A stretch of DNA of 64,000 nt. It comes from Nitrospinaceae bacterium. Lineage in GTDB: Bacteria; Nitrospinota; Nitrospinia; Nitrospinales; Nitrospinaceae. Shown piece by piece: positions 42,569 to 61,925 of this stretch. Both the position numbers and the translations under genes were made by a program. The first letter of the stretch is position 1, and each line of letters starts with the position of its first letter. The notes under the pieces were generated by a model. That model saw only the letters and a list, made by a program, of their open reading frames with translations, did no database searches and was not told the origin of the DNA. The stretch covers positions 1,760,001 to 1,824,000 of the forward strand of contig OZ250172.1 in NCBI GenBank assembly GCA_965237905.1. Reading direction: 5' to 3'.

Positions 42569-42774
42569 TTGAAATTGAAAATTGGATCCCCCTGGTACTC
42601 TCTCCGCCGGTTCCGGAGATCGGCAGAAAACATTATAAGCTGTGATTCAAAAAAAAGGGGTCTCCACGCTATTTTTTTCCAATTTTAGTTGAGTTTTTGA
42701 ACAATATTGGTGATGCTAGACTTGTGGGGAGTGCCCGCAAATTCAGGCTTTTTTCAAACATTTTCAGGATTTAT

Positions 42775-44835
42775 ATGATCTCTTTGATAAAACGGATTAA
42801 AGAGTTTGGAGTTCTGCTGTGTTTTTTCGGAGCTTTCAGCGGAATGATGTTCAAGGTATTTGCCCCTGCTCTTTCTTATGCGGGGAAGCCGCCGGGTGTG
42901 CCTGGCGACCTGACCCGGTTGACGCTTGAAGAGTTGATGGACATTCAAGTGACTTCGGTCTCTAAAGGTGAGGAGGATTTTTCCAAAGCCCCCTCCGCGA
43001 TTTTTGTGATCACCCAGGAAGATTTGCGCCGCTCCGGCGCCAACACTATTCCCGAAGCTCTGCGCATGGTGCCCGGCGTGCAGGTGTCCCAGATCGATTC
43101 CAGCACTTGGGCGATAACCGCTCGCGGTTTCAACTCCCGTTTTGCCAACAAGCTGTTGGTTCTGATCGACGGTCGTTCCGTGTATACCCATGTATTTGCC
43201 GGGGTATTCTGGGACGAGCAGGACATGGTGTTGGAAGATGTTGAACGTATCGAAGTGATCCGCGGACCTGGCGGTACCTTGTGGGGCGCCAACGCAGTGA
43301 ACGGCGTTATCAACATCATCACCAAGAATGCGCACAAAACCACCGGTGGTCAAGTCAGCGCCGGTGGAGGTAATTTGGACCGCTTCATCGGATCTATCCG
43401 GTATGGAGAAAAAATCGGCGACAACGCCGCGGTCCGGGTTTGGGGGAAATATTATAACCGCAACAACCTGGACGATTTGCAGGGCAACTCCGCGCCGGAT
43501 GAATTCGAAACGGGCCGCGGCGGCATGCGGTTGGACTGGGACGCTTCGGAATCGAATTCTTTCACCTTCCAGGGCGACGTGATGGTCGGCGAGTTCGCCG
43601 GTAAGACCTCCAACGCCGTCAACTCTCTGTCGCCTGTACCGACCACGACCGATATCGTGCAGGACTCGCAGGTCCGGACGGCTAATTTCATCACTCGATG
43701 GAAACACCGCTTTTCGGACACTTCTAATATGGACCTGCAGTTTTATTACAACCGTGACCATCGGGAAAGCCGGGTGTTGCAAGAACTGTTAGTTGATACT
43801 TATGATCTCGATTTTCAGCATCGCTTTCAATTGGGAGATCGGCATGAAATGCTGTGGGGGTTGGGGCACCGTTTTATTAAGGATTCGTTTGAAAACAGCA
43901 TCGGCATCAGCTATTTCCCGGACAGCAATCTCAACTATATTTCCAACGCGTTTGTGCAGGACAAAATTACCCTGATCCACGACCAGCTGTATCTCACCCT
44001 CGGTTCCAAATTTTCGATCAACAACTTTACTGGGTTTGAATTCCAACCCAACGCGCGCCTGGCGTGGACTCCCAACGACCGGCATACCGTGTGGGCGGCG
44101 GTTTCCCGCGCGGTACGTACCCCGTCCCGCTCCGGAGATTCAGGGCGTTTTAATGCCGCCACTACTATCCTGCCGGGCCCGACCCCTGCGGTGGTTGTGA
44201 TTCAGGGGCAAAAGGATTTTGAATCTGAAAATCTACTGGCCACTGAGCTGGGCTACCGTTTGCGTCCGCATGACAAATTATTCTTTGATGTAGCGGCGTT
44301 CGTGAATGTTTACCGGGATAGCCATAGCTTTGAAGTGGAAACCCCTTTTCCTAATCCCGCGGGATTTGTGGAAGTGCCTATCGTTTCCCGCAATCGCCTT
44401 GATGGAGAAACTTACGGTGTGGAGTTGGCGGCTACCTGGGATGTGGCGGACTGGTGGCGGTTGAACGGTGCTTTCACCTGGCTCCAGGTGGATTTACGAA
44501 AGGATCCGATCAGTACCGATCAAAATGTCGTGGGTTTCGAAGGCAACGATCCCGAGTTTCAATGGAACCTGCGTTCGCACATGGATCTGCCTTCGAATTG
44601 GGAATTCGATCAGACGTTGTATTACGTGGACGCCCTCAAGAGTCAGCAAGTGCGGAGCTATTTCCGGCTGGACCTGCGGGTGGGATGGCGTCCTACCCAA
44701 AATATCGAAGTCAGTATCGTTGGCCAGAATCTGCTGGATAGCCAGCATCAGGAATGGGGCGACGACCGCATTCAAACGAATGACCGCAATCTGGTAGAAC
44801 GTTCGGTTTTTGGCAAGTTGGTTTTAAAGTTTTAA
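42775..44835 (+). CDS. TonB-dependent receptor
   Basis: LEELMDIQVTSVSK, EALRMVPG, VLIDGR, IEVIRGPGGTLWGANAVNGVINIITK, C-terminal F. Confidence 0.93.
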   Translation: MISLIKRIKEFGVLLCFFGAFSGMMFKVFAPALSYAGKPPGVPGDLTRLTLEELMDIQVTSVSKGEEDFSKAPSAIFVITQEDLRRSGANTIPEALRMVPGVQVSQIDSSTWAITARGFNSRFANKLLVLIDGRSVYTHVFAGVFWDEQDMVLEDVERIEVIRGPGGTLWGANAVNGVINIITKNAHKTTGGQVSAGGGNLDRFIGSIRYGEKIGDNAAVRVWGKYYNRNNLDDLQGNSAPDEFETGRGGMRLDWDASESNSFTFQGDVMVGEFAGKTSNAVNSLSPVPTTTDIVQDSQVRTANFITRWKHRFSDTSNMDLQFYYNRDHRESRVLQELLVDTYDLDFQHRFQLGDRHEMLWGLGHRFIKDSFENSIGISYFPDSNLNYISNAFVQDKITLIHDQLYLTLGSKFSINNFTGFEFQPNARLAWTPNDRHTVWAAVSRAVRTPSRSGDSGRFNAATTILPGPTPAVVVIQGQKDFESENLLATELGYRLRPHDKLFFDVAAFVNVYRDSHSFEVETPFPNPAGFVEVPIVSRNRLDGETYGVELAATWDVADWWRLNGAFTWLQVDLRKDPISTDQNVVGFEGNDPEFQWNLRSHMDLPSNWEFDQTLYYVDALKSQQVRSYFRLDLRVGWRPTQNIEVSIVGQNLLDSQHQEWGDDRIQTNDRNLVERSVFGKLVLKF

Positions 44836-44968
44836 AGATAACCGTTTGTTGACATCAGAACCAATTGCCCCATCCGCGCTCTTTTCTAGCACTTCCGAGA
44901 ACTGGAATTTAACGAAAGGAGAAGCGGGTGCCGCGCAGTGTTTATGGAAAATTCACTTTACGTTTTTA

Positions 44969-45571
44969 ATGGGACATTTTTTATTTAGGTGTGTTTTGAA
45001 GAATAGACTGCGGCGACATTTAATTGTGGTTGGGTTACTCCTCTGGGGTTGGTGCGCGCCACTAGCGAGCCAGGCTCTGGCGGTGGAGTCCGCCTATGCC
45101 GCCGCAGTGGAATATGAAGTCAAGGCGGCGTTCATTCATAATTTCACCCAATTCATTGATTGGCCCTCTGCAGTGTTTGAAGCAGAAGACTCCCCATTGC
45201 GGATCGGTATTCTAGGTAAGGGGCCCATTGATAATCCTTTGATGAATTTGAACGGGAAAAAAGTTCAGAAAAGGTCCTTGGAAGTTTCCAGGATTCGAAA
45301 CTTAAATACGGTTAGCCAGTACCATGTTATTTTTGTGAACCCTTCCGAAGATAGACGGGTGGGGTCCATTCTCCGCACTCTCAAGGGTACCGGTATCCTG
45401 ACCATCGGGGATATGGCAGGTTTTGCCGAGCGATGCGGAGTCATCAATTTTTACCTGAAGAGCGGCAAGGTTCGGTTTGAAATCAATATTGAAGCGTCCC
45501 AGCGGGAAAAACTGAAAATTAGCTCCAAATTACTGCATTTGGCCCGCATTGTAAATTCCCGATGTGGTTAA
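44969..45571 (+). CDS. YfiR/HmsC family (DUF4154) periplasmic protein
   Basis: EYEVKAAFIHNFTQFIDWP, LTIGD, FEIN, ISSKLLHLA; start uncertain. Confidence 0.88.
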   Translation: MGHFLFRCVLKNRLRRHLIVVGLLLWGWCAPLASQALAVESAYAAAVEYEVKAAFIHNFTQFIDWPSAVFEAEDSPLRIGILGKGPIDNPLMNLNGKKVQKRSLEVSRIRNLNTVSQYHVIFVNPSEDRRVGSILRTLKGTGILTIGDMAGFAERCGVINFYLKSGKVRFEINIEASQREKLKISSKLLHLARIVNSRCG

Positions 45572-46363: not shown

Positions 46364-48394
46364 TCAAGAACGAGGCATAGTCTTTAACGGGAAGGCGAGC
46401 ATACGGGTTGGAGTTGTTTGCAAATTAAATAACTGAATGAACGCGGCGAGGCACTGCGGATCATATTTGCCTGCCTTGGTTTTCTTTTGTAATTCCTTAA
46501 TGGCGGTTTGATAATTTAAAGCCACCTGATTCCTACTGTTGCTGGTCAGGACATCAAAATCGTTGGCGATACTCAATATGCGCGAACCCAGAGGAATTTC
46601 CCCTCCCTTTAATTTATCCGGATAACCCGACCCATCATAATGTTCGTGATGGCTCTTCACATAATTGTGGAGTATTGTCGAAGTGTACCCCAACTGTTTG
46701 ATCATCCGGGTGCTTTCTATTGAATGTTGGTGGACCAAGGCCTGCTCGTATTTGGACAAGGGCCGGTTGGTGCCCCGGATTTCGTGCGGGATAATGATCT
46801 TGCCCAAATCATGCAAATATCCGGCGATCAAAAGTTCTTCTTTTTCCCTGTGGGATAAACCCAGTTTTTCAGCCAGCGCGTATGAAAGAAGCGCCACTGT
46901 TTTGCCGTGACCCAGGGTGCCATCGACCGCCTCGGACGCATGAATCAGTTCCATCGGTAATTTGATATTGGCAGTGACCGAAGCATACTTGTCAAAGAAG
47001 TCCCGGGGAATTTTGTTGCGATCCATAAAAGGATCCTTTAGTCCGAGGACCCGGTAAATCGACACACGCTCCTTTTTCCCGCGGATAGCTATTTTTTCGT
47101 ACTCATCCTGCTTTTTCTCTGCCTCAACGTAGGCCTCGCGGGCTTCTACATGGTTCGGGTCGATTTTCAATATTTTTTGAAAAACTTCTATAGCGGCGCT
47201 GGCAGCCCGCTTTTTAAAGAAGGCTTGCCCCAGAGCGTACAGCATCTGCAGGTCGTTGGGATTTTGATTCAGAAGATCTTCGAGGGATCGAACTTCAGCT
47301 TCCACAATCTTGTCCGCTTCCCGTTTGCCATAAACGGAACGAATCCGGCTGACGTGAAAAAATTGCTGAACAATCATATAAGTATTGTGGTCGATGTACA
47401 CTTCGCCGGGCTCGCATAACTCTTCAAGGCGGGCGGCCAGGTTCGCGGTATTGCCGATACAGGAGTAACTTTTGCGCTTCGACCCCAAAAGACCCACCAC
47501 GGACGCCCCAGTGGCAATGCCCACCCGCATTTTCCATTGAGGATGGGTTTTCTGCATTCTTTCCTGCATGGTGAGGCCCGCCAGAACTGCCAGAACCGCA
47601 TGATTTTTATATTTAACAGGTGCTCCAAATTCCACCATGATCCCGTCGCCAATGTACTTGTCGATATGGCCGTAGCACTGGGTGATACAATCCTCCATTT
47701 CACCGAGATAAGCATTCAATTCGTTGATCACCTGTTCCGGCGGATTCTGCTCGGAATAAACGGTAAAGTCCTTGAGATCGGTAAACAAAACGGAGATCCG
47801 CCGTTTTTCGTTGCGCAGTTTGCCTTCGATCATCAACCGTGCTACTTTGGAGTCCATTACAGAGAATAAAGCTTCTTCCACACGGGTTTTTAAGGATTCG
47901 ACATTTCCCTGCGACCGCTCTAGTTCCTGAGTCCTTTCAGAAACCCTTGTTTCCAGTTGGGAGCTGTAATCATTCAACCGTTTGTTGCTGATATCCAACA
48001 GTTGTTTTTCCTGTGCCAGCTCTTCCCGCAGTTTGTCGGTGAAGCGGAGTTTTTCCTTCAACCCTCCGATAATCCATCCCGCTAGAATCAGGAATCCGGC
48101 CCAAATCGTGAGGTGGAAGTACAGGTGAAATTTTTCTTCAAGGGCGTAGTCGTAATAGTAGTTGTCCAAATCGGCCAGCACAAACACCCAGACCATGAGA
48201 ACGGTTAAAAACGCACCCAGCACCGCTGTGCGCCGTCCCAGGTAATAACCCGCGAGCATAATCGGGAGATAGTAAAAATTGAGGAATGCAATTTTGGAAT
48301 AAACGAAGAAATTGATCAGAACAACGCTGATCAAAATCGTGAATATGAAGTGACTTTCGAAATGGTCGAATACGTACCGCTTGAGCTTTTCCAT
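46364..48394 (-). CDS. Membrane sensor - class III adenylate cyclase (TPR insertion) - HD-GYP fusion
   Basis: 4 TM; LFTDLKDFT, DKYIGDG, IGNTANLAARLE; TPR YALGQAFF...ILKIDPNH; LHDLGK, HHEHYDGSGYP. Confidence 0.9.
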   Translation of the reverse strand: MEKLKRYVFDHFESHFIFTILISVVLINFFVYSKIAFLNFYYLPIMLAGYYLGRRTAVLGAFLTVLMVWVFVLADLDNYYYDYALEEKFHLYFHLTIWAGFLILAGWIIGGLKEKLRFTDKLREELAQEKQLLDISNKRLNDYSSQLETRVSERTQELERSQGNVESLKTRVEEALFSVMDSKVARLMIEGKLRNEKRRISVLFTDLKDFTVYSEQNPPEQVINELNAYLGEMEDCITQCYGHIDKYIGDGIMVEFGAPVKYKNHAVLAVLAGLTMQERMQKTHPQWKMRVGIATGASVVGLLGSKRKSYSCIGNTANLAARLEELCEPGEVYIDHNTYMIVQQFFHVSRIRSVYGKREADKIVEAEVRSLEDLLNQNPNDLQMLYALGQAFFKKRAASAAIEVFQKILKIDPNHVEAREAYVEAEKKQDEYEKIAIRGKKERVSIYRVLGLKDPFMDRNKIPRDFFDKYASVTANIKLPMELIHASEAVDGTLGHGKTVALLSYALAEKLGLSHREKEELLIAGYLHDLGKIIIPHEIRGTNRPLSKYEQALVHQHSIESTRMIKQLGYTSTILHNYVKSHHEHYDGSGYPDKLKGGEIPLGSRILSIANDFDVLTSNSRNQVALNYQTAIKELQKKTKAGKYDPQCLAAFIQLFNLQTTPTRMLAFPLKTMPRS

Positions 48395-48639
48395 TAATTC
48401 TTACCTCCCCCGGTAAGGATGCTTCAGGAAACTAAAGACGTGATTTCATTATTTTAAGGTAGTTCTCAAGTATACCCTAAATGGGTTTAAAGTACATTTA
48501 CAAATAATGTGTTTTTATTGGAGGCGAGTGATTACCCTCTGCAGAATAATCGTATAAGCCTATGTAACTTATGGATTTTCAGAGGTGCGGCCACCGTCGG
48601 GCAGGTTTGGAGGGGGGAAATAGGGTTCCTGAGTGGAGG

Positions 48640-48993
48640 TTATTTTTTTTGAGTGTCCGGGGCTGAATCTGGGTATTTTTTGAGCAGTTTTTTGAGCAGG
48701 CTTTGGGCAGCGGCATTGTTGGAGGTGCTTTGTTCCGTTTCAAACAGTGCCAGCGCTTTTTGAACATGGGCCAATGCCGGGCGCCCCTCGTTCAATTGAT
48801 CGTATACCAGGCCCAGATTGAAGTGGGTTGCGCCTTTATCCGGATTATGCTCCAGGGATTTTAGAAATTCGTCAACGGCCTCCCGATACCGTTTAAATTT
48901 TCGATGTTGCCAGGCATTTTTAAAATGGATTTCCGCAGGATCGGTCGGAGGGGGTTTGGACGTCAACCTGAGTTCAAATTCTCTGTCGCTCAT
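48640..48993 (-). CDS. Small TPR protein
   Basis: AVDEFLKSLEHNPDKGATHFNLGLVY. Confidence 0.8.
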   Translation of the reverse strand: MSDREFELRLTSKPPPTDPAEIHFKNAWQHRKFKRYREAVDEFLKSLEHNPDKGATHFNLGLVYDQLNEGRPALAHVQKALALFETEQSTSNNAAAQSLLKKLLKKYPDSAPDTQKK

Positions 48994-49037
48994 AGCAGTC
49001 AATGGCTCAATTGAAAATGTGGATGGTAATCTTTACT

Positions 49038-49955
49038 TCAGGGAATAATATCTTCCGGTCGCAGTTTGAATTGCCGAATGATAAGTTCCTTGTTTTGCCG
49101 GGCCTTTCCCGCCCATTCGAGTTGACCGGCCTGTTGATACAAATCTTCCGCCCGTTGCATGTACTCCACAGCCTTCGGTCCCTGTTGCTTCTTGTAATAT
49201 ATCATGGCCAGGTTGAAATGCACGCCGGGGGCATCCGGTTTTAGCTCCAGCGCCCTTTCAGCGGAGAGTTGCGCCTTGTCCCATTGTTCGAGTTTGATGA
49301 AGGCCGAACTCAACCGGGTCCACACTCGTCCATTGTCTGAATCCAGACGCCCGGCCTGCTTGAGCGCAGGTAAGGCGCGCTCGGGGTCGTTTTCCTTTAA
49401 ATAAATCTCTCCTATGGTGAGATAGGCCAACGATTGATCCGGGTCCAGCTGAATGGCTTTCAAAGACGTTTCAAGGGCCGGTTTGTATTGTTTGAAAAAA
49501 AGACGGGAGGCCCCCAATACCGCATGATCCCTGGCCCTGCCGGAATCGAGCTTCACTGCCGCCTCGGATAATTCCAACGCACGCCGGTAATTCTCCATCT
49601 TGAAATGGACCCAGGCGCCGGTCGATACATACTCCGCGTTATCGGGATGCAGTTTGTACAGTGTTTGAATCACATCCAACGCACGCACCAGTTTGCCCTC
49701 CTTCACCAATTGATGAACGGCGACAACTTCCTTGCCCTTCTCTACCTGAATAGAATTTTCATAATCCGTGAACCAATAGATCCCGTGCTGGCTGATATAA
49801 TAGTAAGCGGGGCCTCCAATGAGCAGGACGGCGAGAATCACCAGGGCGCCCGCCCTGAGAAATTTGTTACGGGAAGGTTCCGGCGGCGGTTTGGACGAAG
49901 GGATGTCCTCGGGCTGGTAAATATCCTTGTATTTGTCGATTCCCGGGCGTGGCAT
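49038..49955 (-). CDS. Membrane-anchored TPR protein
   Basis: One TM followed by about six TPR units (AIQLDPDQSLAYLTIG, ALELKPDAPGVHFNLA). Confidence 0.85.
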   Translation of the reverse strand: MPRPGIDKYKDIYQPEDIPSSKPPPEPSRNKFLRAGALVILAVLLIGGPAYYYISQHGIYWFTDYENSIQVEKGKEVVAVHQLVKEGKLVRALDVIQTLYKLHPDNAEYVSTGAWVHFKMENYRRALELSEAAVKLDSGRARDHAVLGASRLFFKQYKPALETSLKAIQLDPDQSLAYLTIGEIYLKENDPERALPALKQAGRLDSDNGRVWTRLSSAFIKLEQWDKAQLSAERALELKPDAPGVHFNLAMIYYKKQQGPKAVEYMQRAEDLYQQAGQLEWAGKARQNKELIIRQFKLRPEDIIP

Positions 49956-50019
49956 GCCCACTCCAAAGTCGAACTATAGATACTTCTTCATTCTAGAAGT
50001 GGAATCAGCAATTGTAAAG

Positions 50020-50037
50020 CCAGGGTGACGCTGGACC
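50020..50037. repeat. CCAGCGTGACGCTGGACC family copy (one mismatch)
   Basis: CCAGGGTGACGCTGGACC in intergenic DNA. Confidence 0.65.
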
Positions 50038-50130
50038 TGAATTCTGAATTGTGCAGGGTGAGCATCGAGAGCCGTCATCGGTCAACCTGCTCCCCCTCCG
50101 GGCAGGAGCGGCGCGATTGAAGCGTAATCT

Positions 50131-50550
50131 TCATTCTCCCGATAGGTGTAGAACCACCTGCCGGCGATGGGGAGCCGTCCGGTGCTCGAACAGGTAGATA
50201 TCCTGCCAGGTACCGAGGGTGAGACTCCCGTTGACCAGCGGTACGCAAATCTGCGTCTGGGTGAGGGCCGAACGGATGTGCGCTGGCATGTCATCGTCCC
50301 CTTCTGCGGAGTGCCGGTATTGCGGGTCACCGTCCGGCACCATCCGATTCAAAAACGCGTTCAGATCGGTCAGCACATCCGGGTCAGCATTCTCCTGAAT
50401 CACCAGCGAAGCCGAAGTGTGCCGGATGAACACCGTGAGCAGTCCCGTGGTCATCCCCTGCGCGTGCGCCCAGGAGACGATAGCATCATTGATGTTGTGC
50501 AGTCCCCGCGCCTTGGTTTTGATTGATATCTCGTGCGTCGCCTGTTTCAT
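50131..50550 (-). CDS. yjbQ: YjbQ family protein (UPF0047)
   Basis: HTSASLVIQENADPDV, EGDDDMPAHIRS, LGTWQ. Confidence 0.93.
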   Translation of the reverse strand: MKQATHEISIKTKARGLHNINDAIVSWAHAQGMTTGLLTVFIRHTSASLVIQENADPDVLTDLNAFLNRMVPDGDPQYRHSAEGDDDMPAHIRSALTQTQICVPLVNGSLTLGTWQDIYLFEHRTAPHRRQVVLHLSGE

Positions 50551-50740
50551 ACCTCACCCTTTGCGAAATTTATCCGATCATATATAGGAACGCGGACAAA
50601 ATCCAGCCATCCTCCGTAAAAAAGGTGGATAAATCCGGGAGGAAGGCCGAATTTAATATTACCTCTCTCATTCGGATTTGGTTTAGCATAGAGGTATGGG
50701 CATTGAGCTAATAGAGTACCGTTTTTTCTCGGGGTGATGT

Positions 50741-52165
50741 ATGAAAACAACCGTTTATCAGGAAAAAAGTTTTCGCGAAAACGTCAATCTCGTATTTGAT
50801 ATCGCGGCCGCCACCCTTGAAATCAACGATGGCTTGGCATACGTCCTTAAAGGAGCCTACAACGTTTACCAGGTTCGCTTCCCCGTCAAAATCAACGGCA
50901 AGGTCGAAAGTTTTATCGGCTGGCGCGCTGTCCACAGCGAGCATAAGCTCCCCACCAAAGGCGGCATTCGTTATTCTCCCCTGGTGACCCAGGATGAAGT
51001 GGAAGCCTTGGCCGCGCTCATGTCCTACAAATGCGCGTTGGTCGACGTCCCGTTCGGCGGAGCCAAGGGTGGGTTGGTGGTCGATCCCAAGAAATATGAC
51101 GATGCCGTCATGGAGCGCGTCACCCGGCGTTTTGCCTTTGAGTTGATCAAAAAAGATTACATCAATCCCGCCACCAGCGTGCCCGCGCCGGACATGGGCA
51201 CCGGTCCCCGCGAAATGGCCTGGATCGCCGACACTTACATGCAGCACCGCTCGGAAGACATCAACGGTCTCGGCTGTGTCACTGGTAAGCCCGTCAGCCT
51301 GGGGGGCATTCCCGGACGCACCGAAGCGACCGGGCGCGGTGTGGTTTATGGCATCCGCGAATTCTTCCGTCACCCGGAAGATACAAAGAAAGCCGGTTTC
51401 GAAGGCACGCTCGAAGGCAAAACTGTGATCATCCAGGGACTGGGCAACGTCGGCTACCACACTGCCAAAATTCTCGAATCTGAAGACGGCGCAAAAATCA
51501 TCGGCGTCATCGAACACGACGGCGCGTTGATGGACCGCAACGGCCTCAGCGTGGAAGAAGTAAACACCTATAATAAGAAACACGGCGGAGTGAAAGGCTA
51601 TCCCGACGCTCAGTATTTTGAGAATGGCGACGCGATTCTGGAAGAAGAATGCGATCTTCTGATACCGGCGGCGATGGAAGGGGTTATCCATATGGAAAAC
51701 GCCCCGCGTATCAAAGCGAAACTGATCGCCGAGGCAGCCAACGGACCCGTCACTTTCGGCGCCGACGCCATTTTAAGGCAAAAGGGTGTGGTGATGATTC
51801 CCGATATCTATCTCAACGCGGGCGGGGTGATCGTCTCGTATTTCGAATGGATCAAGAATCTGTCGCACATCCGCTTCGGCCGTCTTACCCGCCGCCATGA
51901 GGTCAGCCAGAACGATCTTCTGCTCAAGGCCATCGAATCCAACGGCCATAAAATCCCGACTGAACTTGCCGAGAAACTGTGTCATGGCCCGAACGAGTTG
52001 GATCTGGTCCGCTCCGGCCTGGACGACACCATGCGGACGGCCTTCCAGCAGATCCGCGACCGTTACTGGTCCCACGACAAAATTGAGTCCTACCGCATCG
52101 CCGCCATGGCCATCGCCATTGAAAAAATCGCCCTCAGCTTCCAGGAACGCGGCGTGTATCCTTAA
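50741..52165 (+). CDS. gdhA: Glutamate dehydrogenase (Glu/Leu/Phe/Val family) with antenna-like C-terminal insert
   Basis: KGGIRY, PFGGAKGG, VPAPDMGT, QGLGNVG, EAANGP, NAGGVIVSYFEW. Confidence 0.93.
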   Translation: MKTTVYQEKSFRENVNLVFDIAAATLEINDGLAYVLKGAYNVYQVRFPVKINGKVESFIGWRAVHSEHKLPTKGGIRYSPLVTQDEVEALAALMSYKCALVDVPFGGAKGGLVVDPKKYDDAVMERVTRRFAFELIKKDYINPATSVPAPDMGTGPREMAWIADTYMQHRSEDINGLGCVTGKPVSLGGIPGRTEATGRGVVYGIREFFRHPEDTKKAGFEGTLEGKTVIIQGLGNVGYHTAKILESEDGAKIIGVIEHDGALMDRNGLSVEEVNTYNKKHGGVKGYPDAQYFENGDAILEEECDLLIPAAMEGVIHMENAPRIKAKLIAEAANGPVTFGADAILRQKGVVMIPDIYLNAGGVIVSYFEWIKNLSHIRFGRLTRRHEVSQNDLLLKAIESNGHKIPTELAEKLCHGPNELDLVRSGLDDTMRTAFQQIRDRYWSHDKIESYRIAAMAIAIEKIALSFQERGVYP

Positions 52166-52268
52166 GCCTTGGGTAAGCACCATTTTCCTCCCCTCCAAAA
52201 AGCTTCAAGGCCCGGCTCAATAGTGATATAGTAACGTCAGAAACCCTTGTCCTATCCTCGAGTCGATC

Positions 52269-53363
52269 ATGTCCAGCCCAACCGGAAAAACATCGCAATA
52301 TGAAGCCAGCGGCGTCAGCCAGAGCGGCGCGGAATCCGCGCTGGACGGCATACTCAAACACATTCTGCCGACCCGCAAGTTCAGTGAACGCTATCCACTG
52401 AAAGCCGATATCGGTTACTTCGCCAACGTCATCGACCTGGGCAACGGCGAGGGCATCGCCTTCTGCACCGACGGCGTGGGCACCAAGGTGATCGTCGCGG
52501 AGTTGATGAACCAGTACGACACCCTTGGCATCGACTGCATCGCGATGAACGTCAATGATCTCATCTGCGTCGGCGCGCGGCCGGTGAGTATGGTGGACTA
52601 CATCGGCTGTTCGCACACCGACCCGAAAGTGTTCGAGGAATTGGGACGCGGCCTCGCCGAAGGGGCGAAACAGGCGCAGATCAGCATTTCCGGCGGGGAG
52701 ATTTCGCAGGTGAAAGAAATCATCAACGGCATCGATCTCATCGGCGCCGCCATCGGCCATGTGAAACTCGATCAAATCAATACCGGACAGAATATAAAAC
52801 CCGGCAACTTGATCCTGGGACTCGCCGCCAGTGGGGTGCATTCCAACGGCTTGACCCTGGCGCGTAAAGTTCTATTGGGCGAAACGTTGGAGGAGCAAAA
52901 GGAAAAGATTAACCAATATGAAGAATCGCTGGGCCGTACGCTCGGCGCGGAATTGCTGGAGCCGACAAAAATTTACGTCCAGCCGGTAATGAAAATGCTG
53001 GAGGCAGGCATCGATATCCGTGCCATGATTCACATCACAGGCGGCGGACTCACCAACCTCACCCGCGTGCAAACCAACAATATCCGTTTTGTGATCGACC
53101 CCCTACCTGACCTGCTACCCGTGTACGAGTTGATTCAGGAAGCGGGCGGGATCAGCGATGCGGAGATGTACGAAGTGTTCAACATGGGCACCGGCTTCTG
53201 CGTGATCGTCGACCACGCCAACGACGCCGATCAAGTTCACTCCATCTGCAAAGAATATGGCATCTCCTGCCACGGCATCGGCCAGGTGGAACCCTGGACC
53301 GGTAAAGAAGTGTTCATCCCCTCCAAAAACCTCAAAAGCTCCGGTTCGGGGTTTATCTCATAA
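52269..53363 (+). CDS. purM: Phosphoribosylformylglycinamidine cyclo-ligase
   Basis: TDGVGTK, AMNVND, SGVHSNG, LLEPTKIY, HITGGG, FNMGTG. Confidence 0.96.
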   Translation: MSSPTGKTSQYEASGVSQSGAESALDGILKHILPTRKFSERYPLKADIGYFANVIDLGNGEGIAFCTDGVGTKVIVAELMNQYDTLGIDCIAMNVNDLICVGARPVSMVDYIGCSHTDPKVFEELGRGLAEGAKQAQISISGGEISQVKEIINGIDLIGAAIGHVKLDQINTGQNIKPGNLILGLAASGVHSNGLTLARKVLLGETLEEQKEKINQYEESLGRTLGAELLEPTKIYVQPVMKMLEAGIDIRAMIHITGGGLTNLTRVQTNNIRFVIDPLPDLLPVYELIQEAGGISDAEMYEVFNMGTGFCVIVDHANDADQVHSICKEYGISCHGIGQVEPWTGKEVFIPSKNLKSSGSGFIS

Positions 53364-53446
53364 ATATTTTATTGCCCTGAATCCATCGAAGGATAACAGG
53401 GACGGCTCGTTCCGGCTTTGAAGGCCCTTATGAATTTTGGGGTCGA

Positions 53447-54667
53447 TCATTCGGGGTGAATGTCGGTGAATTCTGGAGGTTCCGTCGGGTTACTTCTTCT
53501 TTCTTTATTTTTTTCTGGAAGCATAATGATAAACGAGGTGCCTTTGCCAGGTTGGCTGACCACGTGAATGGATCCACCATGACGATCCACGATTTTTTTG
53601 CAGATGGCGAGTCCCATACCCGTGCCTTCAAATTGAGTGCCGCTACTGGTTCTTTCAAAGGGATGAAAGACCAGGTTGATCTGGTGGTCCTCAATGCCGA
53701 TGCCGTTGTCCTTGACTATGATTTCCCAGAACCCGTCACGCAACGGGCGGCTGGTGATCTCCACTACCGGTGAGACGCCTTTCTGATGATATTTGAGGGC
53801 GTTGCTGATCAAGTTTTGAACCATCTGTCGCATCTGTGTGGGGTCCGCTTCCAACGTTGGTAATTTTTTGTCGATTTTCAATTGGGCCTTCGAATGGGTG
53901 ATCCGGGCTTCCAGATCATCAATCACTTCCAGAGTCAGTGTGTGCAGGTTCACGGGCTGGAATGACTGGGCACTGGAAGAAACGCTGGCCAGTTTTAACA
54001 GAGCCTCAATAAAGCCCTGCATTCGACGTGCAGATTTTCGCAGGCGATCCAGGTAATCCCGGTTTTTGGTTTCCTCTTTAGGAACATGTTCTTCCAGCCG
54101 GTCGCCGAACATTACGATCTTGCGTAAAGGTTCCTGCAGATCATGCGAGGCGACGGCGGCAAAATCCATCAGCTCCTGGTTGCTTCGTTTTAACTCCTGG
54201 GTTCTTTCCTCGACCCGTTCTTCCAGACGGATGCTGTAGTTTCGCAACTGGCGGTTGGAGATGCTTAACAATTCGCGTTCGTGGTCCAGATCTTCACGGA
54301 GCCGTTCGGTGTGTTTCAACTCGAGCTGCAATTTTTCGGACAAGGTGCCGATCAGCCATGCCGCCAGGATCAGAAATCCTCCCCATACTGTAAGATTGAG
54401 GTTGGCCTGGAAGGAACTGCTGACGGTGTAATATTCCTTTTGGTCCGCCAGGATGAATATCCAGACGATAAGGATGGCAAAAAACGCACCCAGGACGGCA
54501 AACCGCTTGCCGATGTAGTATCCCGCCAGCACGATCAGAAGGTAAAAGAAATCCAGAAAGGCGATTTTGGTGTAGACAAAGTAATTGACGAAAATCGCTC
54601 CCGCCAATATGGAAAGGACAATGGCATCTTGGCCATGTTTCAGTAGATATTTTTTCAGAGAGTCCAC
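53447..54667 (-). CDS. Membrane histidine kinase (phytochrome-type HisKA) with 4-TM input module
   Basis: FAAVASHDLQEPLRKI, QNLISNALKY, DNGIG, GTGMGLAIC. Confidence 0.93.
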   Translation of the reverse strand: MDSLKKYLLKHGQDAIVLSILAGAIFVNYFVYTKIAFLDFFYLLIVLAGYYIGKRFAVLGAFFAILIVWIFILADQKEYYTVSSSFQANLNLTVWGGFLILAAWLIGTLSEKLQLELKHTERLREDLDHERELLSISNRQLRNYSIRLEERVEERTQELKRSNQELMDFAAVASHDLQEPLRKIVMFGDRLEEHVPKEETKNRDYLDRLRKSARRMQGFIEALLKLASVSSSAQSFQPVNLHTLTLEVIDDLEARITHSKAQLKIDKKLPTLEADPTQMRQMVQNLISNALKYHQKGVSPVVEITSRPLRDGFWEIIVKDNGIGIEDHQINLVFHPFERTSSGTQFEGTGMGLAICKKIVDRHGGSIHVVSQPGKGTSFIIMLPEKNKERRSNPTEPPEFTDIHPE

Positions 54668-54889
54668 TTGATTACATTAGAATTGATTGTAAAAAATAGT
54701 ATAAGGTATAAGTCCCTAATAAGAATGACTTTTCAGGGTTTTTCAGGAATATATTGAATCAGCTTATACCTTAATTTGGGAGAGGGAATTGAAAGGAATT
54801 GAAAAATCAGCTTTTAGGGGGAAACTGGACGAGGAAGAGGGTGGCTCTTGTTATGGGCGTGGTTGGATCAGGGCCTGAGAGGATCCACT

Positions 54890-55360
54890 TCAGGTTCTTA
54901 AGACGCGCTTTAACTCTTCTTCCAATTGGAGGTTACGTTCATTCAAGCGTTGGTAGGATAATTCCAGTTCCTTGCGGAGCCGGTTGCTTTCTTCCAGCTC
55001 ATGCTTTCTCTTTTCCGATAGAGTACCGACCAGCCAGGCGGCCAAAATCAAAAACCCTCCCCACACGGTTAGATCCAGATGGGTATTCAATGGGTTGTCG
55101 GGCTCGAGATAAGGGTTTTCGTTCACCAATACAAAAGCCCAAACCATGATGATGGCAAAAAAAGCTCCTAGAATGGCCAGCCGCTTGCCCACGTAGTAAC
55201 CGCCCAGCACGATCAAAAGATAGAACACATCCAGGAAAGCGACTTTGGAATAGATGAAGTAATGAATTGCCGCCGCACTGAGTAACGTGAGGAGGATGAT
55301 AATATCTTCCCAGTGTTTTTCTGTGTGATTTTCAGATTCATCCGGGATGGGATTCGGCAT
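54890..55360 (-). CDS. Stand-alone 4-TM input module plus coiled coil
   Basis: Aligns with the N-termini of 46364-48394 and 53447-54667; no output domain. Confidence 0.8.
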   Translation of the reverse strand: MPNPIPDESENHTEKHWEDIIILLTLLSAAAIHYFIYSKVAFLDVFYLLIVLGGYYVGKRLAILGAFFAIIMVWAFVLVNENPYLEPDNPLNTHLDLTVWGGFLILAAWLVGTLSEKRKHELEESNRLRKELELSYQRLNERNLQLEEELKRVLRT

Positions 55361-55480: not shown

Positions 55481-56839
55481 TTATTCAGTAGGAAAAAACT
55501 TGGCGAGGAAGACAATCGCCACGGCTACGGGGGCGATATATCGCACGACGAATTCCCAGTAGGCCGCCCAGTGGAATGTGGTTTCGTGTCGCTCGATTTC
55601 TTTGTGAGCTTCTTTGGTGCCCCACACCCAGCCGACAAAAATGGCGGTTAGCATTCCGCCTATGGGAAGCAGATAATTGGAAGCGAGATTGTCAACGTTG
55701 TCGAAGAAGTTCATGCCAAACAGTTTAAAATCCTTAAGCAGACCGGCCGACAATCCAGAGGGAATACCAATCACAAAAATCACCAGTCCCATTGTGAGGA
55801 CGGATTTTTTGCGCCCCCAACCTTTCTGGTCAATAAAATAAGCCACCACCACTTCCAGCAGGGAAATGGCCGAGGTCAACGCGGCAATGGCCAACAACGC
55901 GAAAAATATGATGGACACCACCCATCCGAAAGGCATGCCGGTGAACACAGCCGGGAGCACGCTGAACACCAGGCCGGGACCTTCGGTCGGTTCCAGCCCC
56001 ATGGCGAACACGGCGGGGAAGATCACCAGGCCCACCAACAGGGCGATCAGGGTATCGAATAAAACCACGTAGAGGGTCGCGGAAGTCAGGTTCTCTTTGG
56101 CGGGCAGGTAGCTTCCGTAAGTGATCATGGCACCCATGCCGAGACTGAGCGAGAAAAACGCCTGGCCCATTGCCAGCAAAACCGCATGGCCGCTCAGTTT
56201 GCTGAAGTCGGGATACAGGTAAAATTTGAGTCCTTCCATGGCACCGTCCAGCGTCAACGCCCGAATCATGAGAATCACCAGCATCACCACCAGTGTCGGC
56301 ATCAGAATATCGCAGGCTTTTTCGATACCGCCATGCACACCTTTGATGACAATGGCAATGGTTAACCCCATGAACACTGCATGGTAGAACATCACCTCAC
56401 CGGTGTTGGCGATGAAGCCTGCGAAGAATTTTCCCGCCTCGGCGGGGTCGGTGAACTGGTCCAGCGAATGCGTCAGGGCTTTGACCATGTAAGCGATCGT
56501 CCATCCCCCGACCACCCCGTAAAAAGACAGAATCAGGAAGCCCGCGAGCACTCCCATAAATCCGATCCCCACCCAGGGTGTGCTGGGCTTGAGTTGTCGG
56601 AAAGCGCCAACGGGATTGAGGCTGGTTTTGCGTCCAACGGTAAACTCGGCCAGCATGATGGGCAAGCCCACCACGGCGATGCAGATCAGATAAACCAGAA
56701 CAAACGCGCCACCGCCGTTTTGTCCGGTGATGTAGGGAAATCTCCAGATGTTGCCCAGGCCGACGGCGGAACCGGATGCGGCCATAATGAAACCCATTCG
56801 GGTGGCCCAGAGTCCTCGTTTGTGGTTCGGTTCAGTCAT
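55481..56839 (-). CDS. Sodium-dependent transporter, SNF/NSS family
   Basis: GSAVGLGNIWRFPY, GGGAF, QAFFSLSLG, GPGLVF. Confidence 0.95.
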   Translation of the reverse strand: MTEPNHKRGLWATRMGFIMAASGSAVGLGNIWRFPYITGQNGGGAFVLVYLICIAVVGLPIMLAEFTVGRKTSLNPVGAFRQLKPSTPWVGIGFMGVLAGFLILSFYGVVGGWTIAYMVKALTHSLDQFTDPAEAGKFFAGFIANTGEVMFYHAVFMGLTIAIVIKGVHGGIEKACDILMPTLVVMLVILMIRALTLDGAMEGLKFYLYPDFSKLSGHAVLLAMGQAFFSLSLGMGAMITYGSYLPAKENLTSATLYVVLFDTLIALLVGLVIFPAVFAMGLEPTEGPGLVFSVLPAVFTGMPFGWVVSIIFFALLAIAALTSAISLLEVVVAYFIDQKGWGRKKSVLTMGLVIFVIGIPSGLSAGLLKDFKLFGMNFFDNVDNLASNYLLPIGGMLTAIFVGWVWGTKEAHKEIERHETTFHWAAYWEFVVRYIAPVAVAIVFLAKFFPTE

Positions 56840-59035: not shown

Positions 59036-60205
59036 ATGGTAAATAAACCAAAGGCATCCCGAAAACCCAAAGCTGGACCCAAGAAAAGCCCAAAAGCTGC
59101 CCCTATATCAGCCTCAAGAAAATATTTAAGTCAAACGGATGTGCCTGGTGTCTCTTTAGAAAAAGCATTAAAAGTTTCACAGGCTTTAAATGACAATTTT
59201 GCGAAACATCCAACTAAACCCTTAATGATAGCTCAAGCTTTAGATATGTCTCCCACCTCGGGGCCCTTTAGGCAACTATGTGGTGCCGCTATAGCCTATG
59301 GTTTAACCGAAGGAGGCTATAATGCGGACCAAATTTCTCTAACTAACCTAGGCACTAGAATTGTTACTCCAACTGAAGAGGGTGATGATTTGATTGCTAA
59401 AAGGGAGGCCGTTCTAAAGCCGCGAGTTTTAAATGAATTTCTTAAACAATATGATGGTTCTCCTTTGCCAAAAGAAAATATTGCTTTAAATGTTTTAGAG
59501 GAATTTGGTGTTCCGAGAGATAAAACTGATAAAACATACCAATTAATTTTAGAAAGCGCCGAAGCAGTAAAAATAATTACTGAAATAAAGGGAAAGCAAT
59601 ATGTAAATTTAGAGTCTTCTGGAATTTCAACAGCTGAGGACGAGCAGGAAGAGCTTGCTGAAAGTGAAACCGCACAAACGCTTGAGAATCCTCCTGTAGA
59701 GGAAGTCATTAAGGATGAAAATGAAGAAACCATCTCTCAAGATAAACAAAAAAACTTAAAAAGAAAAAAACGAGTGTTTATTACCCATGGAAAGAAAAAG
59801 CATTTTATTGAACCAATTAAAAAGCTGTTAGATTTTGGTGAAATGGAACCCGTGGTTTCTACAGAAAAACAGTCCGTATCTCAACCTGTTCCCGATAAGG
59901 TAATCAATGATATGAGAAGTTGCGGAGCGGCCATAGTTCATGTTGATACGGATTCGATCGGAAAAAAAGAAGACGAAAAAATTAAAATTGTTAATTCCAA
60001 TGTTTTGATTGAGATCGGTGCCGCCATGGCTCTTTATGGTAAAAGATTTATTTTATTAGTAGAAGATGGTGTGGATTTGCCATCCAACCTTCAGGGACTA
60101 TACGAAGTAAGGTATGAAGGGGAAAATTTGGATAGTAATGCTACGATTAAATTACTCGAGGCAATTAAAGATATTAAAAATCATCCATTGCCAGAGGAAA
60201 AATAG
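59036..60205 (+). CDS. Protein with C-terminal Cap12/Pycsar-type TIR-like domain and helical N-terminal domain
   Basis: RVFITHG, NVLIEIG (catalytic Glu), LPSNLQG; visibly AT-rich versus neighbours. Confidence 0.85.
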   Translation: MVNKPKASRKPKAGPKKSPKAAPISASRKYLSQTDVPGVSLEKALKVSQALNDNFAKHPTKPLMIAQALDMSPTSGPFRQLCGAAIAYGLTEGGYNADQISLTNLGTRIVTPTEEGDDLIAKREAVLKPRVLNEFLKQYDGSPLPKENIALNVLEEFGVPRDKTDKTYQLILESAEAVKIITEIKGKQYVNLESSGISTAEDEQEELAESETAQTLENPPVEEVIKDENEETISQDKQKNLKRKKRVFITHGKKKHFIEPIKKLLDFGEMEPVVSTEKQSVSQPVPDKVINDMRSCGAAIVHVDTDSIGKKEDEKIKIVNSNVLIEIGAAMALYGKRFILLVEDGVDLPSNLQGLYEVRYEGENLDSNATIKLLEAIKDIKNHPLPEEK

Positions 60206-60284: not shown

Positions 60285-61925
60285 TTATTTACCCTTTTGC
60301 GCAACGAGGAGGTAGCGGGTGGAGGGGCAGGTATCGGCTTTGTCGCCGATGGGTTGGAGAGTCACGGCATCATAGATATCCACTTTGCCTTTGAACGCTT
60401 TTGCGAATTCCTGACGCAAACGCCACATCGGCGGCAGGAATCTCAAATGCTTGCCTTCGTTGGTGATCAGTAACCGGTCGTTGTTGCGGCTGACGTTCAA
60501 AATCTCGCTCTGCTGGAACGTTCGGTTGCCTTCCTCGATCAGCACTGGATTGCGCAGGGAGATAACGTTGCCCGTCTTCGACCGGATCACGTGCGGATAC
60601 GTCCGGATGTGGTCCGGTGTGATGAAGTCGCCGAAAAAGTATCCGCCGGGCTTGGTGATTTGCGCCGTGACCGCCAACGCCTCGTCCAACTGCTCCGGCG
60701 ACAAATACTGAAACACGTTCAGCCCGCAGTAAGTGACGTCCCAGGTCTGATCGCCCAATGCCAGTATGTCTTCCGCCTTGGCGGTGATGCGGCGCGACGC
60801 CACCTGCACCATCGCCTCCGATTTGTCGATACCCAACAGGCGATCGCCCGGCACCCCCAGCTGTTTGATTAAATATTCCTCCACAATACCGGTACCGCAA
60901 CCGATGGACAGAAACTTCACCTTGTCCCGTTCGATCTTATATTTTTCAAAAACGAATTTTAAATACTCAGCGATGAACTCATCGAGGCAGGGCTGGCCGA
61001 TGACGTCGTCGTACAACTCGGCGTAGGTGTAAAACGGATCGCCCTGGTCGTCGGGAAAGAGTAACGCCTTCTGCACCTTGGCGGCGGCGATGAGTTCGTT
61101 GCGCAGTAACCGCCAGTAGCCCATGTCCGTCATGTGGCCGGATTTCTGATCGACGTGCGGGAACAGATCGTTTACAAATCTCTGCCAGTTGGACGTGTCA
61201 CACAATTTCTGGACAAGCTCCTGGTCGCGTTGTTCCAGATCGGCGGGTAACTCCATGTGGCGTTGGACGCGGTCGATGCGGTTTTTCAGTTCGATGACGT
61301 TGCGGAGCCATGTCAGGTAATCGGGATGCGGTCCCGGCTCGCGGCGTTTGATCTGGTTCTCCGGCATGGCGAAGAACACCCCGCCGTCGGTGCGCTGTAT
61401 GGTGTTTTCTTCGAGGTCGAAAATACGCGCGTCCGCGGTGACGCCGCCTTTGGAGCGGCCGTAACAACCGTACATGTGAAAGCTCATGAAATTTGTGTTG
61501 GACGGATTGCCCAGCTGATGCACCAGTTGATTCCCCACCGACATCACCTCGCCCGGTTTCACCTCGGCACGCGACAGGGTGGTGATGTCGCCGTCCTGCA
61601 CCAGGAACACCGAGTGCTCCGCCGGACCGAACACCTGCACCGCGCCCCACTCGGTATAGCCGTGATCGTGAATGGCGGAAAAATCCCCCGGCGTCCACGA
61701 CATGACCATCATTTCGAAATAGCCGCCGTCAAAAACCAGTTTGCGTCCATAGCTGTCGCGGATGGGGTGTTCGAGTTCGGACCAGGGTTCCAGGTCCTCC
61801 GTCTGCAGGTTGGCCGAAAGCAGGAGTTCGCGCGCCTTACGCGGAGTGAGGTCCTTCGCCTCCTCCAGCATGCGGATCAAATCCTGGATGGCAAACGGCA
61901 AACGATGTTTGTTCATGGCCGCCAT
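60285..61925 (-). CDS. Cysteine dioxygenase-like cupin fused to class I SAM methyltransferase
   Basis: YGRKL, WTPGDFSAIHDHG, HQLGN, SFHMY; FLSIGCGTG, GIDKSEAM, KPGGYF. Confidence 0.85.
   Translation of the reverse strand: MAAMNKHRLPFAIQDLIRMLEEAKDLTPRKARELLLSANLQTEDLEPWSELEHPIRDSYGRKLVFDGGYFEMMVMSWTPGDFSAIHDHGYTEWGAVQVFGPAEHSVFLVQDGDITTLSRAEVKPGEVMSVGNQLVHQLGNPSNTNFMSFHMYGCYGRSKGGVTADARIFDLEENTIQRTDGGVFFAMPENQIKRREPGPHPDYLTWLRNVIELKNRIDRVQRHMELPADLEQRDQELVQKLCDTSNWQRFVNDLFPHVDQKSGHMTDMGYWRLLRNELIAAAKVQKALLFPDDQGDPFYTYAELYDDVIGQPCLDEFIAEYLKFVFEKYKIERDKVKFLSIGCGTGIVEEYLIKQLGVPGDRLLGIDKSEAMVQVASRRITAKAEDILALGDQTWDVTYCGLNVFQYLSPEQLDEALAVTAQITKPGGYFFGDFITPDHIRTYPHVIRSKTGNVISLRNPVLIEEGNRTFQQSEILNVSRNNDRLLITNEGKHLRFLPPMWRLRQEFAKAFKGKVDIYDAVTLQPIGDKADTCPSTRYLLVAQKGK

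Follow-up and report, generated by a model that had tools for sequence, protein, structure and literature searches.

A putative DUF4118-related membrane input module heads a cyclase/HD-GYP protein, a histidine kinase and enzyme-less paralogues in a Nitrospinaceae bacterium

Introduction

Three genes in a 64,000-nucleotide stretch of a Nitrospinaceae bacterium (GenBank assembly GCA_965237905.1, contig OZ250172.1, positions 1,760,001 to 1,824,000; hereafter the window) begin with the same membrane module and continue differently. They raise the question of whether this module serves as an input domain for the enzymes behind it and what the gene that carries it without any enzyme contributes. The original prediction, made from the DNA letters alone, had read them as one conserved four-transmembrane (4-TM) module wired to a cyclase/HD-GYP protein, a histidine kinase and nothing. 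All three open reading frames (ORFs) are present:

46364..48394, minus strand: gene A, 676 amino acids, with the 4-TM module, a coiled coil/S-helix, a class III cyclase with a TPR hairpin, and an HD-GYP domain that is probably impaired
53447..54667, minus strand: gene B, 406 amino acids (GTG start), an orphan kinase with the 4-TM module, a coiled coil (ERT at residue 154), HisKA and HATPase_c
54890..55360, minus strand: gene C, 156 amino acids, with the 4-TM module and about 35 residues of coiled coil, without ERT and without an output

On balance, we favour the explanation that the module is a MASE-like input domain feeding the enzymes fused to it and that C likely damps B; as a whole, this account is somewhat probable.

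Results

The shared module

The N-termini of the three proteins are clearly homologous in pairwise BLASTP: A and B share 50% identity over 163 columns (E 3e-59), B and C 52% over 140 columns (E 7e-53), and A and C 43% over 142 columns (E 2e-37). The motifs by which the module had been recognised align in all three, with no pair scoring worse than the last of these E-values. The module is about 115 residues long and was delimited in the two enzyme genes as follows:

48035..48394, minus strand: 4-TM module of A, residues 1-120
54314..54667, minus strand: 4-TM module of B

Four helices are present in both structure models, which are of low confidence (predicted local distance difference test, pLDDT, of 64 and 68), while hydropathy gives three clear segments and a weaker second one, best seen in B and C; the predicted four helices thus stand, the second being the less distinct. 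The loops are short, as had been proposed, but not almost absent, since a poorly conserved loop of about 15-20 residues connects helices 3 and 4.

Among 65 diverse members (A numbering), W98 and L102 are invariant (65/65), and G53, L38, F101, G110, E13, P44, R55, Y42 and K34 are kept in 52-63 of the 65 (G53 in 63, E13 in 57, Y42 in 54, K34 in 52). The family signature is FLNFYYLP together with the invariant tryptophan in helix 4, and no Cys, His or Met was found among the columns conserved at 55% or more of these members. A proline present in 57/65 members is missing from B and C, which also carry D in helix 2 where A has N. With the basic G[RK]R turn placed inside, the predicted topology has both ends inside and K34, N39, Y42 and W98 toward the outer half of the bundle. 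Judged by their conservation, W98 and the polar residues suggest more than an anchor would need, and we regard an input role of the module, rather than that of a mere anchor, as probable.

The S-helix, which is described as transmitting signals as a switch from input to enzyme, has an ERT signature (PMC1592074); this signature is present in A and B and absent from C.

Relation to DUF4118 and MASE domains

A distant relationship to DUF4118 or MASE domains had been proposed for the module, and the profile comparisons bear it out below the curated thresholds. Against DUF4118 (PF13493), B scores 14.4 bits, C 11 and A nothing, compared with a gathering cut-off of 28.4; the hmmscan match spans model positions 4-101 of 107. 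At E<=0.5, DUF4118 matches 62 of 72 members (best 2e-5), and MASE1 matches 17 of the 72 (best E 9e-5); in a separate scan a MASE1 match had 25 bits against a cut-off of 29.8. Other MASE models were absent from the 25 families shown of 50 for these 72 members, and no named MASE model exceeded its cut-off in the scans made. Applied to 61 genomes of the order, the DUF4118 model gave six matches, five of them to this module and none over 28.4 bits. The module family profile gave at most 18 bits on 17 true DUF4118 sequences. A precomputed DUF4118 tag occurs on a few relatives (3/120 and 4/120), and the NCBI label of some C orthologues is 'DUF4118 domain-containing protein'.

Comparison by hhalign of the family with an alignment of Escherichia coli KdpD and 16 over-cut-off DUF4118 domains gave a probability of 94% and a score of 44 over 75 columns, covering helices 2-4 and leaving helix 1 unaligned. 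As controls, 40 column shuffles scored at most 14 and the reversed alignment 12. The module resembles DUF4118, as found in KdpD and also PelD, in its length (about 105-115 residues), its four helices and short loops, the aromatic-rich helix 2 ending in G-[RK]-R, and the last helix that continues as a cytoplasmic helix. It differs in standing at the N-terminus without a KdpD or Usp domain and in having HD-GYP and cyclase as its main outputs. Being kin to DUF4118 but under the curated cut-off, the module is a relative rather than a member, very probably a distinct DUF4118-related family, for which a new MASE-like input family is the best reading.

MASE9-11 were delimited as conserved integral membrane domains common to different signalling enzyme classes, and many more MASE domains are considered still undefined (10.1101/2021.11.05.467447). 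Under the working definition of a membrane domain fused to at least two output classes, the module qualifies with HisKA, cyclase, HD-GYP and GGDEF, in agreement with the predicted modular use of one membrane domain on different outputs. Like MASE1-MASE12, it is an integral membrane domain without a large periplasmic part that recurs across signalling enzyme classes; unlike MASE9-11, it has four helices instead of 6-8 and includes two stand-alone lineages.

Searches of structures and further family collections retrieved no full-strength match to a characterised family in Pfam, NCBIfam (nothing under E 0.05) or the sequences of the PDB, where profile searches gave no meaningful match and no solved relative. 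With the low-confidence models, Foldseek found nothing in the PDB at E<=0.001, and the VIA wide search returned generic helical bundles (best Z 8.6, a designed protein); KdpD does not appear in the list of 50, an absence that excludes nothing. As leads only, the ESM Atlas contributed clusters without a name and one in which 28% of the members carry DUF4118. We found no literature on this module family or its output-less paralogues in our search records, which covered mostly non-subscription literature, and the family is apparently undescribed so far.

Copies, distribution and fused outputs

Whereas three copies had been noticed in the window, the whole genome holds six (E<=1e-22, the next match being at E 0.19): two cyclase-TPR-HD-GYP proteins, two kinases and two stand-alone genes. 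The copies outside the window are:

C1:1470024-1472111 (L002:7025-9112), minus strand: second cyclase-TPR-HD-GYP protein, 53% identical to A
C1:1371787-1372869: second kinase
C1:2006048-2006563 (L003:8049-8564), minus strand: second stand-alone module gene, lacking a coiled coil and extended at the N-terminus by an acidic stretch

Of 120 genomes searched in the phylum, 34 (21 of the 57 high-quality ones) were matched by a profile built from the six copies, and the other 86, many of them incomplete, gave no match. The profile also matched all 10 further genomes of the genus, up to six times in a genome. The six-copy set most likely reflects expansion and re-wiring of the module family in one Nitrospinaceae genus. 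Database names of close relatives are Nitrospinaceae and Nitrospinota, which we take to be nitrite oxidisers. A broader profile matched 64/301 genomes of another phylum (45 at E<=2.5e-11, the others weakly) and 31/201 in the phylum of a Gemmatimonadetes record (26 at E<=2.5e-11), and the full-length cyclase fusion was found in 21/151 genomes of a gammaproteobacterial family. Source names outside the phylum include Thermodesulfovibrionales, Smithella and Pseudohongiellaceae. An exhaustive profile search of 1.84 billion representatives yielded 719 clusters (50% identity) at E<=0.001, 465 of them at E<=1e-10.

The outputs found behind the module are HisKA, cyclase-TPR-HD, HD-GYP and GGDEF, the last in a protein of other families of the phylum. 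We scanned 58 representatives picked from 100 of at least 190 residues among 150 listed, omitting most of typical HD or cyclase length. They comprised 14 with HD, eight with kinase (three hybrid, one with PAS), seven with cyclase, and one each with GGDEF, GAF, Hpt, PilZ and RrnaAD; 24 showed no family at 1e-6, and among those read, fragments and degenerate HD domains prevailed. Most of the short proteins in the list of 150 were fragment-like and were not counted as stand-alone forms. HD-GYP and cyclase-TPR-HD-GYP outputs predominate outside Nitrospinota and are therefore probably the older fusions. Most full-length loci read have no other sensory domain annotated between module and enzyme, which leaves the module as the sole evident input of those proteins.

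Some unusual forms were also recorded. One genome of the genus (L013:1480-2478) shows a recent output swap, in which a module belonging to the second kinase lineage has HD-GYP fused to it rather than a kinase. One protein (P0476) has PilZ in front of the module and no output after it, on a single 1.8-kb contig that may be an assembly or gene-calling artefact. Three of 21 gammaproteobacterial cyclase-fusion copies (L164, L167, L168) are broken by early stops or a frameshift, and up to 116 and 79 contigs carry truncated forms of 213 and 220 residues, respectively; loss of this fusion may be common in some marine populations. We rejected these 213-220-residue proteins of module and coiled coil as a third stand-alone form, since they look like recent nonsense alleles: in one genome the frame is interrupted by a lone in-frame stop and looks intact beyond it, and in two others the stops fall close to the start.

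Gene A: a predicted cyclase with an altered HD-GYP domain

Pfam assigns Guanylate_cyc (residues 197-350), TPR (about 364-425) and HD_5 (495-647) to A. Behind the module, the segments of A are:

47825..48034, minus strand: coiled-coil linker with the S-helix ERT signature at residue 153
47345..47806, minus strand: class III nucleotide cyclase core, residues 197-350 (Pfam), with D206, K246, D250, N318 and R322
47105..47305, minus strand: TPR-like helical insert, about residues 364-430 (Pfam)
46415..46933, minus strand: HD-GYP domain, about residues 488-660, keeping HD, HHE and GYP, with Asn611 and without RxY(K/R)

Class III cyclases use two metal-binding aspartates, a substrate lysine, and a transition-state asparagine and arginine. 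The five residues D206, K246, D250, N318 and R322 of A align across 45 homologues, and from their presence A is predicted to use ATP and to make cyclic AMP (cAMP). Residues 433-451, which follow the TPR segment, look to us like the KG arm at the C-terminus of cyclases, and the TPR segment is for this reason probably inserted inside the cyclase fold. A matches class III cyclase structures at E of about 1e-25 to 1e-27. It resembles the class III membrane adenylate cyclases (Pseudomonas aeruginosa CyaB, PDB 3r5g; PDB 2w01) in its membrane anchor, coiled coil and cyclase core with catalytic residues, but differs in the TPR hairpin within or right after the core and in having an HD-GYP domain at its C-terminus, both kept across phyla. 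The median ratio of nonsynonymous to synonymous substitution rates (dN/dS) of A is 0.078.

The HD, HHE and GYP motifs are present in A and its clade, and the conserved C-terminal Asp of HD-GYP domains has a metal role. A has Asn611 where PmGH has this Asp, as does the inactive receptor DvhD in the alignment. Asn occurs in 31/31 sequences of the A clade, none of which has RxY, whereas the paralogue clade has Asp and RLY in 10/10 complete sequences. The second paralogue of the same genome (C1:1470024-1472111) keeps both features lost in A, which suggests an active and an impaired HD-GYP domain paired in one cell. The RxY[K/R] motif binds guanine and governs specificity for cyclic di-GMP (c-di-GMP) (10.1101/2021.11.05.467447). 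The original description of A as a cyclase/HD-GYP protein is right as to the domains; with Asp changed to Asn and RxY(K/R) lost, the HD-GYP domain is probably impaired in catalysis, and A is better read as a cyclase with a probably impaired HD-GYP appendage. In the gammaproteobacterial homologues (six sequences read), the HD motif itself is lost.

DvhD of Desulfovibrio vulgaris (PDB 9rbz, 9rc0) likewise has an HD-GYP-like domain behind a membrane part, with Asn in place of the PmGH Asp. However, DvhD lacks HD, keeps RxY and binds c-di-GMP (PMC13090378), whereas A keeps HD and HHE and lacks RxY(K/R), so that the likeness does not imply c-di-GMP binding by A. The input of DvhD also consists of dCache and PAS instead of the four-helix module.

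Two TPR genes (positions 48640-49961 of the window) lie directly upstream of A on the same strand, an order kept in three loci (L034, L035, L036). The 3' end of A is 0.8 kb from a pair on the other strand, a TonB-dependent receptor gene followed by a YfiR/HmsC-like (DUF4154) gene (positions 42697-45571), with no partner cyclase or kinase directly behind it.

Kinase B and the stand-alone modules

B carries HisKA (residues 168-229) and HATPase_c (275-386) with complete kinase motifs, namely the H-box His and the N, G1 and G2 boxes at 173, 285, 320 and 348. The receiver-domain match closest to B is about 27 kb off, and each of the six module copies is at least 20 kb from one. A and B are about 5 kb apart and separated by genes on the opposite strand, so that A, B and C form no single operon; only C and B, 222 bp apart, make a tandem pair. 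A promoter/terminator scan gave 7 against 3.9 +/- 1.9 and 10 against 5.2 +/- 2.2 in shuffles; no single site stands out, and the scan lends no support to co-transcription of C and B. The RNA-run search listed no RNA holder.

C ends before the S-helix ERT and keeps about 35 residues of coiled coil, and the Pfam scan of C placed no family above cut-off. Its DNA is 70% identical to the 5' part of B, and in a tree of 52 sequences it falls inside the B-type kinase clade (support 99/96); C is likely a tandem 5' duplicate of B. It is under purifying selection, with a median dN/dS of 0.149 (maximum 0.221) over 10 pairs, which are not independent, close to the median of 0.127 for B. C is present in six of the eight genus genomes with the locus assembled; five other genus genomes have it directly upstream of their B orthologue, and in one of these five the assembled copy is shortened. 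C-like proteins make up 48 of 120 listed short homologues or clusters, 28 of exactly 156 residues. We rejected a strain-specific remnant or pseudogene, one of two outcomes that would have undone the original prediction (the other, a strong full-length match to a characterised sensor family, did not come about either), on the basis of the five other genus genomes, dN/dS of at most 0.22 and a length mostly of 155-161 residues.

The second stand-alone lineage groups with GGDEF-fused modules of other families (94/93, just under the strong-support mark). Since C clusters with kinases and this lineage with GGDEF-fused modules, the output was probably lost twice. The second gene has a median dN/dS of 0.215 (12/15 pairs unsaturated), and its orthologues have differing neighbours: an MMPL gene, a flagellar cluster or trp genes.

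The anatomy of C fits a subunit able to pair with B without completing a signalling dimer, which is not evidence of pairing. Anatomy and ancestry together make the originally suggested role of C as a decoy or heterodimerising modulator plausible. A complex prediction for B(1-150) and C(8-156) scored 0.06 against a mark of 0.32 and gives no verdict, being evidence neither way.

Discussion

We propose that a cue or partner would be read at the outer half of the bundle, around K34, N/D39, Y42 and W98, and that a conformational signal would pass from the module through the coiled coil to whichever enzyme is fused behind, in A and B presumably by way of the ERT S-helix. A would make cAMP, its impaired HD-GYP domain serving as a regulatory appendage. 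A B:C pair might form that cannot complete the S-helix/kinase dimer, and C would likely damp the adjacent kinase by competing for the dimer partner or for the signal. The copies would not need to read the same cue. Taken by itself, the step that C acts on B is tentative and somewhat doubtful.

Several observations weigh against this explanation. Some helix-order permutations of the DUF4118 alignment scored 33-37 in hhalign, so that part of the DUF4118 likeness is a generic helix pattern. The structure models are weak (pLDDT 63.8 with a predicted template modelling score, pTM, of 0.30, and pLDDT 67.9 with pTM 0.44). The branch that makes C sister to the kinases of the genus is weak as well (82/34 in the 52-sequence tree), and purifying selection shows a function of C without identifying B as its target. 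C is absent from the assembled locus in two of the eight genus genomes (one 94% complete) and from the sister genera, and is thus dispensable. No shared partner gene was found in 36 loci of other phyla, and neighbourhoods are not conserved outside this bacterial family, so that genomic context gives no cue.

An unlikely alternative, to our judgement, is that the module is mainly a membrane anchor or dimerisation scaffold like the KdpD helices, with the enzymes regulated from the cytoplasm (A through its TPR and HD-GYP domains) and the stand-alone copies buffered by-products with a structural role. The homology to DUF4118, whose KdpD helices are described as anchor and clip (PMC2714519), the short loops, and several conserved Gly/Ala typical of helix packing would fit. 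However, no further input domain is annotated in B between module and HisKA, the invariant Trp and conserved polar residues persist across phyla, and selection maintains two lineages without an enzyme, something that a mere anchor would not require.

The genes around B and C bear on another reading, that the module is a docking surface for a membrane protein, either a co-sensor such as a transporter or a target in inside-out signalling, with the stand-alone copies titrating this partner instead of pairing with B. The neighbour in question is:

55481..56839, minus strand: SNF/NSS-family transporter gene, directly upstream of C, or of B in loci that lack C, and on their strand; listed as a neighbour without a claim that it belongs to the system

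Of 13 other loci examined, 11 have the SNF gene directly upstream of B or C; in one of the remaining two it lies 1.4 kb upstream across an inserted gene, and the other is cut at the contig end. In sister genera, it abuts the kinase. Docking would also accommodate the weak HD matches of many HD-fused members in Gemmatimonadota loci, the gammaproteobacterial cyclase homologues without the HD motif, and the single short-contig protein with PilZ before the module and nothing after it. Precedents are PelD, a DUF4118 domain with a degenerate GGDEF (PMC7890745), and DvhD, whose inactive HD-GYP signals inside-out (PMC13090378). Yet the SNF adjacency is part of a larger conserved block of one family, uvrC-SNF-kinase-purM-gdh, and is not independent evidence, and the 36 loci of other phyla hold no conserved partner gene. 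We consider docking, too, to have a low probability.

At the same site in L058:4463-5848, a gene of 341 amino acids, RDD-like by eye, stands just upstream of the kinase, and on either side of it the final 100 nt of the SNF gene are repeated, the two copies being 93% identical; the site held by C in other genomes seems prone to insertions.

The favoured explanation, an input module with C likely damping B, could be extended to both enzyme-less lineages. Having arisen twice, from a kinase and apparently from a diguanylate cyclase, they might act as dedicated membrane 'decoy' subunits that pair through the module and either adjust the gain of the kinase, cAMP and c-di-GMP outputs or cross-wire them, as a combinatorial receptor network in a marine nitrifier. 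We offer this as a speculation and hold it to be improbable.

The original proposal that all copies read one nitrifier-relevant stimulus (nitrite, membrane redox or proton motive force), split into cAMP, c-di-GMP and phosphorelay branches, is very improbable: all Nitrospinaceae-type copies do fall in one clade, weakly supported (96/62), and the genus has up to six copies on three output kinds, but B and C differ from A at core positions (the family proline and the helix 2 N/D), no conserved column offers Cys, His or Met, and the family is absent from 86/120 phylum genomes searched (many incomplete) and common elsewhere, with strong matches in 45/301 and 26/201 genomes and the cyclase homologue in 21/151.

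Other features of the window

Two further ORFs of the window were read by eye. The first (positions 59036-60205, 389 amino acids) seems to have a TIR-type nucleotide-binding domain at its C-terminus and is possibly a defence gene, and the second (positions 60285-61925, 546 amino acids) appears to fuse a cysteine-dioxygenase-like cupin to a SAM methyltransferase.

Implications

The module would provide the missing input domain of orphan signalling proteins that number in the hundreds (HD-GYP proteins, cyclases, kinases and diguanylate cyclases), in groups that are uncultured or little studied, namely Nitrospinota, Gemmatimonadota, Pseudohongiellaceae, Thermodesulfovibrionales and Smithella, so that a single ligand screen could annotate many proteins. 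The link to KdpD bears on the question of whether those four helices only anchor or also sense. A new MASE-like family by itself is an expected kind of finding, and the more unusual part is the enzyme-less paralogues, derived twice and kept under selection. If it is true that they pair with their full-length paralogues, truncating a receptor would be a simple and repeatable route to a regulator.

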